DNA of 64,000 nucleotides from Escherichia phage vB_EcoM_VR26. The translations under genes and the position numbers were made by a program. Positions 3,473 through 41,864 of this stretch are shown in pieces. Location: sequence record NC_028957.1. The stretch is one strand, 5' to 3'. The notes under the pieces were generated by a model. It was not told the DNA's origin, made no database searches, and saw only the letters and a list, made by a program, of their open reading frames with translations. Within the stretch, counting starts at the first letter, position 1. Every line of letters begins with the position of its first letter.

Positions 3473-3724
3473 TTAATCCTTGGGAGTTAACTCAATTGTA
3501 AAATATAGATTAGCATTATCCACATGATAACGGTAATCAACGTTATTATCCGGTGAAGTAAATTCCAGATTCCGGACGTTTAAAGGGTCGATATCAATTG
3601 GAAGACCTTTTATGTCTCGCAGATAAAGTTTAATGAAATATGGGAGCGCTGTAAAGTCTTCCTCGATTTTATCTAAAAAATCGGTAATATCAAATTGATG
3701 TTCCATATAAAAAATCCAAATCAC
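3473..3724 (-). CDS. hypothetical protein (83 aa)
   Basis: ORF track; immediately downstream of gene 55. Confidence 0.45.
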
Positions 3725-4247
3725 CTTCTTTATCTTTGGCGCTCTTATCAGACCCTGGCGCTTTAACTAAGGAGGATTCGTACTGTGTCATTTTGTCATA
3801 GATGTCCTGGATAAATGTTTCGTCAGCCAGAGCCACCATATCGTCGTCACGTGAATCATACACGTTATGGACGAAGTAGCTATATTTCTTTGCCATTTCT
3901 TTACGTTCTTTTTTGATACGCTGAACGAAAGCATTGAAGCAAGCCATTGTTATGTAAGCATGTGGATTATCGTATTTTGTTTCGTCGAAGTTATGAAGAC
4001 CTTTTATTGCGGCCTCAATTCCGTCCGCTATCATTTCCTGCTTCCAAGATTGGGTATATCCTGAAAAGTTGAAACGTTTAGACAGACCTTCGGCTATAAG
4101 CATAATCGCCAGACCAATAACATCGTTCTGGCGAATAATTTTATTTGGGTCGGTATTTGCATTCAGCTTCTGTTTCCACTCCGAAATAGCTTTCAGAAGC
4201 TCTTTATTATTTACATAGTTATTCTTGGTTAATTTAATTTCGTTCAT
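3690..4247 (-). CDS. 55: Late-transcription sigma factor gp55
   Basis: 185 aa; NYVNNKELL...[36 protein letters not shown]...[21 protein letters not shown] matches T4 gp55 almost residue for residue from memory. Confidence 0.95.
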
Positions 4248-7287: not shown

Positions 7288-7761
7288 TCATTTGAGCGAT
7301 TTCCTCAGTTGTTTTTTAAATGAAGCTTGTAGTTTAGGCTTCGTATCAGATTCATTATAAGTCATACCGTTCAAAAGCATTTCCTGAATCATTTCTTCTT
7401 TTCCCAGGCGACCAAACTCTTTGGCTTTGTCTGTCACAAAATTGGGGTGAATATTGTTTTCGGTATAATCAGATTTCAGATAGACAAGCAAACTCTCTAA
7501 CCATTCCAGGTAGTCAACATCGCGACCTTTCAGACCCGAGCGGCTGAACTTATGCTTCATTTGTCCTTCTGTTCCATTGCACAGATTGCATAGTAACCCA
7601 CGAACCTTACCGGCTTTTGGCCCGTTCAATTCGTGGTCATGGTCAAGATGGTTGGCCTGAACATCGGAGTCCAAATCACGGTGGCAAATTGGACACTTAC
7701 CAGCTTGTGCATCATAAAGTTTTTGTTTTTCTTCTTTGTATAATTTGCCAGTCAACAACAT
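7288..7761 (-). CDS. 49: Endonuclease VII, Holliday-junction resolvase gp49
   Basis: 157 aa; MLLTGKLYKEEKQK...HLDHDHELNGPKAGKVRGLLCNLCN matches T4 gp49 from memory. Confidence 0.95.
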   Translation of the reverse strand: MLLTGKLYKEEKQKLYDAQAGKCPICHRDLDSDVQANHLDHDHELNGPKAGKVRGLLCNLCNGTEGQMKHKFSRSGLKGRDVDYLEWLESLLVYLKSDYTENNIHPNFVTDKAKEFGRLGKEEMIQEMLLNGMTYNESDTKPKLQASFKKQLRKSLK

Positions 7762-7796
7762 AATAAACCCTTACCATTATTAGATAAGGGTATTTA

Positions 7797-7973
7797 TTAA
7801 ATATTATAGAACGAGCGATGCAACCGTTTAAATTGACGAATCATCTTTTTGGTAGGACGAGTATACAATCCCACACAGGTGGCCATAAACTGGTCAGTAG
7901 GACTTCCCTTGATAAAAAGTTTCCAGACCTTACCACCATTTAACTTTTCAGTATAGACTAATTCAGTTTTCAT
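7797..7973 (-). CDS. hypothetical small basic protein (58 aa), below ORF-track cutoff
   Basis: Own translation: MKTELVYTEKLNGGKVWKLFIKGSPTDQFMATCVGLYTRPTKKMIRQFKRLHRSFYNI; ATG overlaps upstream stop as TAATG. Confidence 0.45.
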   Translation of the reverse strand: MKTELVYTEKLNGGKVWKLFIKGSPTDQFMATCVGLYTRPTKKMIRQFKRLHRSFYNI

Positions 7974-25100: not shown

Positions 25101-25517
25101 TTAAGCGTACACAGCTTTCCCATAGTATTTGTACCAGGTAGGCTTTTGAGAAATTTTCTCATTCAGTCTGGATTGACTGATTTCAATTGACCAGATTGAT
25201 GGTTGATAATCATTCTTCCATTCATCAGGAATATCATTTAAATCTTGGGTAGAAATATCTTTTATATTAAACCCTCGCTTTAAACATTCAGCAATAAGTT
25301 CTTGATGACGGTTTTTAAGGAACAAAAGCTTATCATAAAAGAAGGTGACATGACCAGTTCCTAAAAGAAAAGATGATGGGATTTTAAAGTCAGACACCTT
25401 TTTACCATTTTGCACATGCTTACGAACAGCACCAAACACGCGAGGAAGCTCACGATATTCAGCCATAAGGTGTTGGTCGGCAAGTTCAGATACCAGGGTT
25501 AAATTAATGCGAGTCAT
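25101..25517 (-). CDS. denV: Endonuclease V (pyrimidine-dimer DNA glycosylase) DenV
   Basis: 138 aa; [35 protein letters not shown]...[11 protein letters not shown] matches T4 DenV from memory. Confidence 0.95.
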
Positions 25518-25543
25518 GTTTGTTCTCCGTAGTTGATAGGGTC

Positions 25544-25573
25544 ATTATAACCCTATCGTTTGGAGATGTAAAC
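25544..25573 (-). promoter_or_regulatory. T4-type early promoter upstream of denV
   Basis: GTTTAC -18- TATAAT with inverted repeat atagggt/accctat around the -10; -35 overlaps e stop codon. Confidence 0.5.
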
Positions 25574-26061
25574 TAATAAGCGTCAAAAGTTCCAGTACGG
25601 AAAGTTTCAATAACTCGTTTGGCCCGGTTTGGAGTCTGGACTTTATACCATCTTGAGTCAGCCAGTTCCTTAGCAGCAGCTTCCCATGATTTAGCCTTGA
25701 GCAATCGCAGCCCCTTAGGAAAACCAGCAACACCAGCTACACCCATTTGGAATACCATATTAATGAGTGCACAACGACGAACTTCATCCAGTACATCATA
25801 AACAGGCTTTAAGACAGGATGTTTCAAGATTCCGGCTTTAGCTTTTTCGACCGAACGGTTAAACAATGTTTCGGCTTCGTGCTGGGTTATACGACCATTA
25901 CAGATACGACCCATGAGCTTGTCGAGCTCAGCACGAGCAACATCTTTCGATGGGTTCTTAGTTATCAATTGCCCGATACCAATGGTCCAATAACCTTCGG
26001 TATCTTTATACAAATCCAACTTACAACCTTCATCTATGCGTAACATTTCGAATATATTCAT
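25573..26061 (-). CDS. e: Lysozyme (endolysin) e
   Basis: 162 aa; [12 protein letters not shown]...[15 protein letters not shown]...[12 protein letters not shown] matches T4 lysozyme from memory. Confidence 0.95.
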
Positions 26062-26063
26062 AA

Positions 26064-26090
26064 TACCCCCTTATATAGGGGTATTTATTA
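26064..26090 (-). promoter_or_regulatory. RBS-sequestering hairpin plus late-promoter-like box upstream of lysozyme gene e
   Basis: Minus strand aATAAATA then ATACCCC-tatataa-GGGGGTAT with SD in the 3' arm, 1 nt before ATG. Confidence 0.5.
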
Positions 26091-26549
26091 TCCGAAAATT
26101 TGAGTCAAAACCTTGTACATCGATTTACCCATTACGTATTGCCATTGACTCGGTTTAATCAGAGCAAATGCATCAAACTCTGGGACCAAACTACCATCCG
26201 GGAATGTATGATATGCGGAGCATTTACTATGTCTGAATTGCTCATGCTCGACCGGGACCGTGTACAAAAACAGGTGAAGGTTTTTGTTATCTGAATAACG
26301 GAACTCGCCTAGGTCTTTTAAGAATGCCGGGTCATACTGGGTAAAGCCTGTTTCTTCTTCGCATTCACGTATAGCCGCTTCAATCGGGGATTCACCGGCT
26401 TCAACATGACCCTTAGGGATATCCCATTTATGTGCAGGCATACCCGGTTTGCGAGAACCAGTCACGCGACCCATGAATAGCTCTTTATCTTCAGTCATGA
26501 AAATAATACCAGCAGATAATTCTTTCACCACGTTTTTCTTACTCATCAT
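26088..26549 (-). CDS. nudE: Nudix hydrolase NudE
   Basis: Nudix box GHVEAGESPIEAAIRECEEETG; start placed at internal MMSKK (track runs to 26675). Confidence 0.8.
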   Translation of the reverse strand: MMSKKNVVKELSAGIIFMTEDKELFMGRVTGSRKPGMPAHKWDIPKGHVEAGESPIEAAIRECEEETGFTQYDPAFLKDLGEFRYSDNKNLHLFLYTVPVEHEQFRHSKCSAYHTFPDGSLVPEFDAFALIKPSQWQYVMGKSMYKVLTQIFG

Positions 26550-26775
26550 CACGTTCCCACGATTTTTTAAAGATTTCAGCCATAATAATTTCAATACGTG
26601 TTTCTGTTGATGGCGATTCACTACTAGAAGTTTGAACTCTGTATTCAGAAATCGGGCGGAACAAGTCCAGGTCAATTTCTAAATCATCTTTGATTTCAAC
26701 TTCGGGCGTACCTTTATCATAGGAATACAGGTAAGAATCACATGACTCTGATTTAATATAAATTGCAATACTCAT
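26539..26775 (-). CDS. hypothetical acidic protein (78 aa)
   Basis: ORF track. Confidence 0.45.
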   Translation of the reverse strand: MSIAIYIKSESCDSYLYSYDKGTPEVEIKDDLEIDLDLFRPISEYRVQTSSSESPSTETRIEIIMAEIFKKSWERDDE

Positions 26776-28060: not shown

Positions 28061-28090
28061 ATTATGTCATAGCCCCATTTGGTTGTACAC
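28061..28090 (-). promoter_or_regulatory. T4-type early promoter
   Basis: GTGTAC -18- CATAAT. Confidence 0.45.
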
Positions 28091-40767: not shown

Positions 40768-41213
40768 CCTTTCCATCCTAATTTTTTCAGTGAGTTTTCA
40801 GTGATTATCCTAAACGTTATACCCATTTTATCTGCCGTAGATTGTGCAGCTTTCCATTTGTCCGAGTTAACAGCCCAGGTATACATCTCGTTAATAAATC
40901 TCTTTTTGCTCGCAGCGGTATTATTAACAGGTTTGGTTGGTGGTCTTGTTTCTTTTAATGGCTTAACTTCGAAAAAGAACTGTTGTCCTGTATCAAACTT
41001 AACCCAGAAATCCATATAATACCTGCGCTTTTTACCATCGGCATTGCTAAAGTAAGGGATGATAACAGTCTCAGAACCCCATTGAACAACGTTCGGATGG
41101 TTGTCGAGCCATCTCATAAGCCAGGCCTCCCAGCTTGACCGGTATTGTATTTTCTTCCAGTCGCCCTTATATTTTTCTATATTAGTGGGCTTAAATTTCC
41201 CGGAGTATGCCAT
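40764..41213 (-). CDS. 4: Head completion protein gp4
   Basis: 149 aa; [29 protein letters not shown]...[14 protein letters not shown] matches T4 gp4 from memory. Confidence 0.9.
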
Positions 41214-41242
41214 ATAGCCTCCTAATAAATATTGATATACTT

Positions 41243-41253
41243 ATTTATAAATG
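41243..41253. promoter_or_regulatory. Divergent overlapping late promoters (gene 4 leftward, gene 53 rightward)
   Basis: ttaTTTATAaatgg: minus strand reads TATAAATA, plus strand TATAAATG. Confidence 0.5.
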
Positions 41254-41261
41254 GAGGCTTT

Positions 41262-41864
41262 ATGCTTTTTTCATTTTTTAACCCAATTGATTATGATGCT
41301 AAAACAATCAGAAAAAACCCTGCATCATTGACGAAAGAAGACGTCTTAAGCATTCCAATGACTGACATTTTCAGAAATTATCGTGCTTACTTTGATAAGG
41401 TCGCGGTCAATTATACACCAAAAACCTATTACATTGCCGGAGCTCCACGCCCGGAAGAATTAGCATATCAGCTATACGGCAACACTCAGCTCTATTGGGT
41501 TCTCCTTATGCTCAATGATATCTATGACCCGTATTATGGTTGGCTTTGTACCCAAGAAGCATCGTATCAAGCATCAATTCAGAAATATTCAAATGTCGGG
41601 GGCAATCAGGTCCTTTATCATGTGAACGAAAACGGTGAGAAGTTCTGGAACCTTGTTTCTTATCCTGATAATCCATACACCTGGTACGATAAAGGCGATA
41701 AAAACAAATTATATCCGCAATACGAAGGTCCATTAGCCGCAGTGGATATCTATGAAGATGCTATTCGCAAAAATGAATACAAACGAGAAATAAAGATAAT
41801 CGACCCTAACGATATCGAATCTTTTATTTCGGCGCTTATTCGTGAGATGGAGAAGTCGCTATGA
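41262..41864 (+). CDS. 53: Baseplate wedge protein gp53
   Basis: MLFSFFNPIDYDAKT...PMTDIFRNYR...YHVNENGEKF matches T4 gp53; ATG 41262 after SD GGAGG (track TTG start at 41232 overlaps the promoter). Confidence 0.9.
   Translation: MLFSFFNPIDYDAKTIRKNPASLTKEDVLSIPMTDIFRNYRAYFDKVAVNYTPKTYYIAGAPRPEELAYQLYGNTQLYWVLLMLNDIYDPYYGWLCTQEASYQASIQKYSNVGGNQVLYHVNENGEKFWNLVSYPDNPYTWYDKGDKNKLYPQYEGPLAAVDIYEDAIRKNEYKREIKIIDPNDIESFISALIREMEKSL

Follow-up and report, generated by a model that had tools for sequence, protein, structure and literature searches.

Long early transcripts of bacteriophage T4 reach the lysozyme gene e and form an inhibitory structure at its ribosome-binding site, and lysozyme synthesis is cut ~100-fold (PMC3014915). 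Two late promoters are located just upstream of e, and their transcripts, which lack the 5′ part of the structure, are well translated (PMC3014915, citing McPheeters et al. 1986, Nucleic Acids Res 14:5813). Similar leaders, in which a T4-type late promoter lies within the DNA for the 5′ strand, have been predicted in close T4-type relatives (PMC3014915; Uzan and Miller 2010). The T4 inhibitory leaders given as examples are those of e, soc, 49, and I-TevI (PMC3014915). T4 late promoters carry an 8-bp box at positions −13 to −6 (PMC1524935). The T4 RefSeq record annotates no promoter features for e, and our literature searches for VR7 late promoters and for modern T4 start-site maps found nothing relevant.

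The DNA analyzed here is a 64-kb stretch (hereafter the window) identified as belonging to Gaprivervirus, a genus of T4-like phages. At positions 25400-26700, it shares 98% DNA identity with phage vB_EcoM_VR7 and 91% with Shigella phage SP18. In this region, the gene order on the minus strand is nudE-e-denV, as it is in VR7. The nudE gene for a Nudix hydrolase (26088-26549; open reading frame and VR7 annotation; Pfam NUDIX, E 1.9e-16) ends with the stop codon TAA at 26090-26088. Gene e (25573-26061, with its AUG at 26061-26059) is an open reading frame for a T4-type lysozyme of 162 amino acids that carries a Pfam Phage_lysozyme match. Its product has 99.4% identity to VR7 e and ~70% protein identity to T4 e, and it matches the T4 lysozyme in the PDB with an E value of 4e-70. 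The third gene, denV (25517-25101), is assigned by its open reading frame, the VR7 annotation, and a Pfam Pyr_excise match. Across its length, the window is separated from VR7 by several indels, with offsets of 610, 354, 352, 0, and 335 at positions 1000, 5000, 8000, 26000, and 40000, respectively. It also carries two adjacent tRNA genes on the minus strand, Arg(tct) and Met(cat), at 35359-35514; the part of the VR7 record that was compared has one tRNA-Met only.

The 26-nt gap between nudE and e is wholly occupied by a late-promoter box and a hairpin (minus strand, 26090 to 26059, TAATAAATACCCCTATATAAGGGGGTATTATG). The box, AATAAATA, spans 26089-26082 and shares its first two bases with the end of the nudE stop codon. 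Only the A at −13 sets it apart from the T4 consensus TATAAATA. The minimum-energy fold is a 9-bp hairpin of −13.1 kcal/mol that consists of a 5′ arm complementary to the Shine-Dalgarno (SD) sequence (AAUACCCCU, 26077-26085), a 6-nt loop (AUAUAA, 26071-26076), and a 3′ arm (GGGGGUAUU, 26062-26070) that contains the SD GGGGGU (26070-26065) and abuts the AUG at 26061. The identical hairpin forms in every context tried, from 81 to 271 nt. The duplex energy of the SD with the anti-SD is −9.0 kcal/mol.

A first-pass annotation of this DNA had described a 7-bp stem, ATACCCC/GGGGTAT, whose 3′ arm holds the SD and ends 1 nt before the ATG. The 7-bp core was read correctly, and the fold widens it to 9 bp by an extra A-U pair and a closing U·G pair. 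The location of the SD in the 3′ arm likewise stands, but the 9-bp fold adjoins the AUG directly. The same annotation recognized a near-consensus late box, and we also find one there. However, it placed the box before the stem, whereas the box actually overlaps the stem by 3-4 nt, which is why the string it gave writes ATA twice.

Two further elements of the leader were considered. In minimum-energy folds, a possible outer helix within 26046-26097, pairing 26097-26089 with 26054-26046, would form around the hairpin and AUG of read-through RNA. This helix is found in SP18 and absent from other genera, and thus it is unsupported by comparison. The loop sequence TATATAAG was examined as a second late box of the kind present in T4 and was rejected because of its mismatch to TATAAATA. 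When Rfam was searched at gathering and permissive thresholds, no family covered the e leader, and the best local matches there scored 15-16.5 bits with E values above 1. At the gathering score, the whole window yielded two tRNAs only.

The resemblance of this leader to that of T4 extends to most of its parts. The gene is orthologous and occupies the same nudE-e position, and in both phages ATAAATAC is followed by a pyrimidine-rich, SD-complementary 5′ arm, past which the late start is predicted. In each case, GGUAUU closes the 3′ arm immediately upstream of the AUG. Calculated in the same frame, the hairpin energies are also alike (−13.1 kcal/mol for the window and −13.3 kcal/mol for T4). The differences are that T4 has two TATAAATA boxes, one at the 5′ arm and one in the loop, whereas the window has one box, which carries A at −13 unlike the T4 consensus. 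The SD pairing is GGGGG with CCCC in the window and GGAGG with CCTTC or CCTCC in T4, the loop has 6 rather than 8 nt, and the intergenic gap is 26 rather than 37 nt. T4 e has been studied experimentally, whereas e of the window is known from sequence and modeling.

By the rule that places the box at −13 to −6, the late start site should lie at about 26076, which is the sixth base after the box and the first base of the loop. The predicted late RNA begins AUAUAAGGGGGUAUUAUG and lacks the entire 5′ arm. Partition-function folding gives a mean probability of 0.01 that the SD is unpaired in read-through RNAs of the window that start at 26120-26260 (91-271 nt) and about 0.51 in predicted late RNAs that start at 26075-26077. 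The same procedure yields 0.001 for T4 read-through RNA and 0.42 for the predicted T4 late RNA. The SD of the predicted late RNA of the window is thus only about half free in the model, which counts against the gate proposed below.

Based on these features, we propose that early and middle transcripts passing through nudE would carry both arms of the hairpin. Lysozyme would not be made early because the hairpin pairs the leader from the SD up to the AUG, and ribosomes cannot start. After the onset of DNA replication, RNA polymerase carrying gp55 would recognize AATAAATA and initiate at about 26076 in the loop. The resulting RNA would have no 5′ arm, its SD would be free on a 15-nt leader, and lysozyme would be translated late. 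The first-pass annotation had pointed to early silencing by a hairpin and an internal late start in T4; this is indeed the published mechanism for T4 gene e (PMC3014915), and the sequence-level features that it requires are all present here. We therefore assign a probability of roughly 85% to the reading that T4 gene e and this Gaprivervirus gene have orthologous leaders, with translation gated by transcript origin. The function of the gate in this phage is supported by orthology and modeling. Sequence anatomy, thermodynamics, orthology, and conservation were computed; read-through transcription, promoter activity of the box, the position of the start, and the effect on translation are what we infer.

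The e late box is expected to be read in trans by the late sigma factor gp55, whose gene is located at 3693-4247 on the minus strand (100% tblastn match to VR7 gp55; PHROG 234, E 3.7e-68). A search of NCBIfam with the gene 55 product gave no match, whereas PHROGs was matched. The proteins gp33 and gp45 are absent from the 64-kb window.

Entry of early RNA into e also seems plausible because the genes upstream of e are co-oriented and tightly packed, the terminator scan predicts no minus-strand terminator between 28948 and e (26062), and sigma70-like promoter candidates are found in intergenic gaps near 28089 and 29943. We infer that such read-through RNA would plausibly enter e from nudE.

The proximity of nudE also raises another possible role for the hairpin, in which it would act mainly on the early RNA of nudE as a weak intrinsic terminator or a 3′ stabilizer and would sequester the SD only incidentally. 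The stem begins 2 nt past the nudE stop codon, and like an intrinsic terminator it is a G+C-rich stem-loop directly after a stop codon. Moreover, the homologous e hairpin in phage ATK47 (NC_055708) is annotated as a 'putative terminator determined with ARNold'. Unlike an intrinsic terminator, however, the e hairpin lacks a U-tract in its transcript: on the minus strand, AUGAAUAU comes after the stem instead of a run of U residues, and the scan calls no terminator at the site. Longer early transcripts of T4 extend into e (PMC3014915), and what every genus conserves of the stem is the complement of the SD. Given these observations, we consider a role mainly in nudE RNA to be quite improbable. 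A terminator acting on the plus strand, where the reverse complement of the hairpin scores as terminator-like, was rejected because there are no plus-strand transcription units to terminate, with no genes or late boxes on that strand for 41 kb upstream and with terminator-like matches occurring at the chance rate (4 found versus 3.9 expected).

A second concern is whether the box is a working promoter. The hairpin might be real and the box AATAAATA inactive, in which case lysozyme would be produced by some other route, such as processing of the long RNA or melting of the hairpin by translation of nudE. Because the nudE stop codon is only 2 nt away, a terminating nudE ribosome could transiently open the stem. 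The box itself also invites doubt in that it deviates from consensus at −13 and is followed by CCCCT, whereas T4 late promoters favor AT-rich DNA just after the box (PMC2988020). The deviation at −13 is nevertheless a familiar one. An A replaces T in 9 of the 50 T4 late sites listed and is the commonest natural variant (PMC2988020), and −13 is commonly A or T in T4 relatives (PMC1524935); variants of this kind are both common and used in T4. The C-run at −5 to −1 is better explained by pairing with the SD, given the preference of T4 late promoters for AT-rich DNA at this place. Such a run occurs after only two of the 13 NATAAATA sites in the window (where N is any base), namely those of e (CCCCT) and gene 49 (CCCTT).

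The distribution of late boxes in the genome also argues against an idle box at e. All 13 of the NATAAATA sites in the window are oriented toward the gene that they precede. The antisense core TATTTAT is depleted, with 2 seen versus 9-17 expected, and both are in the divergent intergenic region of genes 4 and 53, each upstream of its own gene. Likewise, VATAAATA, which has a non-consensus first base (V being A, C, or G), is seen 5 times versus 18.1 ± 4.4 expected in 64 kb, the e box being one of the five. These depletions, together with the orientation of the sites, look like the result of purging antisense late promoters, and selection in this genome acts on the late-box core. There is no other NATAAATA on the minus strand within 11 kb upstream of e, and the e box is thus the only late-type start available to this gene. 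As described below, ATAAATAC is also invariant at a fixed place among related leaders while the neighboring bases vary. We therefore regard a nonfunctional box as improbable, to about the same degree as a role mainly in the nudE transcript.

By its folding energy alone, the hairpin is not exceptional. The z-score from dinucleotide shuffles is modest, at −2.0 to −2.3, and 4-7 of 200 shuffles fold equally well, because the C4 run and the G5 run pair in most shuffles. As a baseline for burial of the SD, we used 110 annotated gene starts from the near-identical stretch of VR7, taking the best anti-SD match of each gene and computing its pairing probability. The median probability of being unpaired is 0.43, and it falls below 0.05 for five genes (53, 4, 49, 109c, and e). 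Among these, 109c has no real SD match, and the buried SDs of genes 4 and 53 face each other and form a palindrome.

The region between the divergent genes 4 (minus strand) and 53 (plus strand), at 41195-41275, deserves a brief description. The palindrome of the facing SDs (GGAGGC) buries both of them in RNA that crosses the region. The late boxes of the two genes are in the loop (TATAAATA at 41249-41242 on the minus strand and AATAAATA at 41224-41231 on the plus strand), and each late RNA would consequently lack the opposing arm.

Within the genus, the e leader is strongly conserved. Of 31 Gaprivervirus records, 29 carry the same 56-nt module without a change, and the flanking DNA is 89-98% identical. 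The two exceptional records, both unverified, retain every stem pair; one has an extra loop base, and the other has a longer G run where the 3′ arm meets the loop. In the alignment of the window with SP18, 124 of 1301 nt are differing or unaligned, and the longest identical run (114 nt, 26107-25994) is centered on the module. This run reaches 68 nt into the e coding region, well past the hairpin. The second-longest identical run, of 58 nt (25555-25498), spans the beginning of denV and part of its leader.

For comparison across T4 relatives, we collected e leaders from 18 annotated phages and from 80 loci in IMG/VR, a public collection of viral contigs. Among IMG/VR loci whose lysozymes have at least 59% identity, 37 of 38 carry both an SD-pairing hairpin and ATAAATA, located 27-34 nt upstream of the AUG. 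The one exception, a Nanhuvirus-type locus, has CTAAATA in the loop of a 14-bp SD hairpin. At 56% identity or less, none of 40 IMG/VR loci has the box. In total, ATAAATAC and an SD-pairing hairpin are kept in all 27 distinct leader variants, which span at least 10 genera of Tevenvirinae (Tequatro-, Mosig-, Dhaka-, Gapriver-, Winkler-, Kanagawa-, Jiaoda-, Moon-, and Marfavirus, among others). At −13, 16 of these leaders have A, 6 have G, and 5 have T. A second box in the loop is restricted to Tequatrovirus leaders, and every non-Tequatrovirus genus sampled has one box.

The helix occurs in two registers. In one, ATACCTCC pairs with GGAGGTAT and GGTATT precedes the ATG; in the other, CTCCTATC pairs with GATAGGAG and GGTCCT precedes the ATG. 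The SD is the paired element in both. Which register a genus has depends on whether its 5′ arm carries the CC or the C form, and for this reason RNAalifold finds no consensus structure on the 27-leader alignment. Pair counts were therefore taken on the subset of 13 sequences that share the register of the window, in which 88.7% of cells are paired, versus 43-55% after the partners are shifted by 1-3 columns. Both sides change at a single pair, from U-A to C-G, and this change is in the lineage of the window itself, where GGAGG became GGGGG and CCTCC became CCCC. Shuffle controls for covariation are borderline (22 and 26 of 500). The conservation of the arms could partly reflect constraints on the SD and the promoter. 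Because the covariation is thin, most of the weight falls on conservation, the rarity of such burial, and the experiments in T4.

A G-rich SD and a C-run beside an AT-rich box might also be complementary by coincidence, without selected function. The z-score of only about −2 would fit this idea, as would the stem pairs, most of which are either invariant or changed in one strand alone. It is nevertheless very improbable given conservation in at least 10 genera with the SD staying paired as the register changes, a compensatory change in the lineage of the window, a module kept perfectly within the genus while the background diverges by 9%, and the rarity of so buried an SD among 110 gene starts.

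Hairpins of a similar kind also precede other lysozyme genes. The Cronobacter phage LPCS28 (Nanhuvirus) has a 14-bp hairpin that buries the SD before its lysozyme gene and that carries CTAAATA, a late box of the Aeh1 type (PMC1524935), in the loop. An unrelated group of metagenomic phages in IMG/VR, with lysozymes of 52-53% identity, hides the SD within CUUCCUU-AAAUAA-AAGGAA. The hairpins of LPCS28 and of this metagenomic group may be independent versions of the same logic. In Edwardsiella phage PEi20 (AP014714), there is an in-frame ATG right after the hairpin, at locus position 421, which gives MDIFG..., and the start of e is probably annotated 27 nt too far downstream in that record.

Other T4 genes are regulated in a related manner. 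As with e, the long early RNAs of T4 49, soc, and I-TevI form an inhibitory helix at the translation initiation region, and a late promoter is so positioned that the late RNAs lack the 5′ strand. Unlike in the orthologous e leaders, these are other genes, without sequence homology beyond the box and the SD complement. The window contains one of them, and its gene 49 leader (7759-7798, minus strand) is the counterpart of the published T4 gene 49 case. This leader has the box AATAAATA at 7798-7791, followed by CCCTT, and its start, AATAAATACCC, is near-identical to that at e, with the ATG at 7761. A hairpin formed by ACCCUUAUC and GGUAAGGGU, together with outer pairs, buries the SD (ΔG −14.1 kcal/mol, z −3.8, probability of an unpaired SD 0.001).

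The leader of denV, the gene downstream of e, appears to present a mirror image of the e gate that is built on an early-type promoter. This leader (25575-25515, minus strand) includes a strong candidate sigma70 promoter in which TTTACA (25572-25567) and TATAAT (25549-25544) are separated by 17 bp, with 11 of 12 matches. The predicted structure that contains this promoter has an energy of −20.1 kcal/mol and a z-score of −5.75. In this structure, UCUCC in the promoter spacer forms the 5′ arm and pairs with the denV SD, GGAGA (25528-25524). The computed probability that this SD is unpaired is 0.03 in read-through RNA versus 0.46 in RNA from the predicted denV start near 25537. The helix is shared by T4 and most Tevenvirinae denV leaders, with the 5′ arm in the spacer or right after the −10 element, and the part of the helix outside the SD covaries (TGTAG/CTACA, GTTTG/CAAAC, AAG/CTT, and TGTG/CACA). 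Our literature search found no description of the denV structure, and it is not among the T4 inhibitory leaders listed in PMC3014915. Perhaps the e gate is half of a reciprocal pair, such that late e RNA would be silent for denV and RNA from the denV promoter would be translatable. This proposal comes from modeling, and we regard it as a tentative idea that is at present doubtful.

The e gate of this phage is already known in kind and by orthology, and this lineage differs only in minor ways, having a single box, an A at −13, and a G5/C4 core. The classic T4 device for delaying lysozyme would thus be intact in the Gaprivervirus lineage, a conclusion that matters little beyond annotation. For annotation, the e site would be a regulatory element and not a terminator, as the record of one relative labels it. 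For the family, the single-box layout is the common form and the second loop promoter of T4 is specific to Tequatrovirus, and ATAAATAC is invariant while −13 is free. The Gaprivervirus lineage also supplies the sole compensatory base-pair change that supports the helix. If the denV gate is true and undescribed, then gating by transcript origin would be general in this gene block and would operate in both temporal directions.
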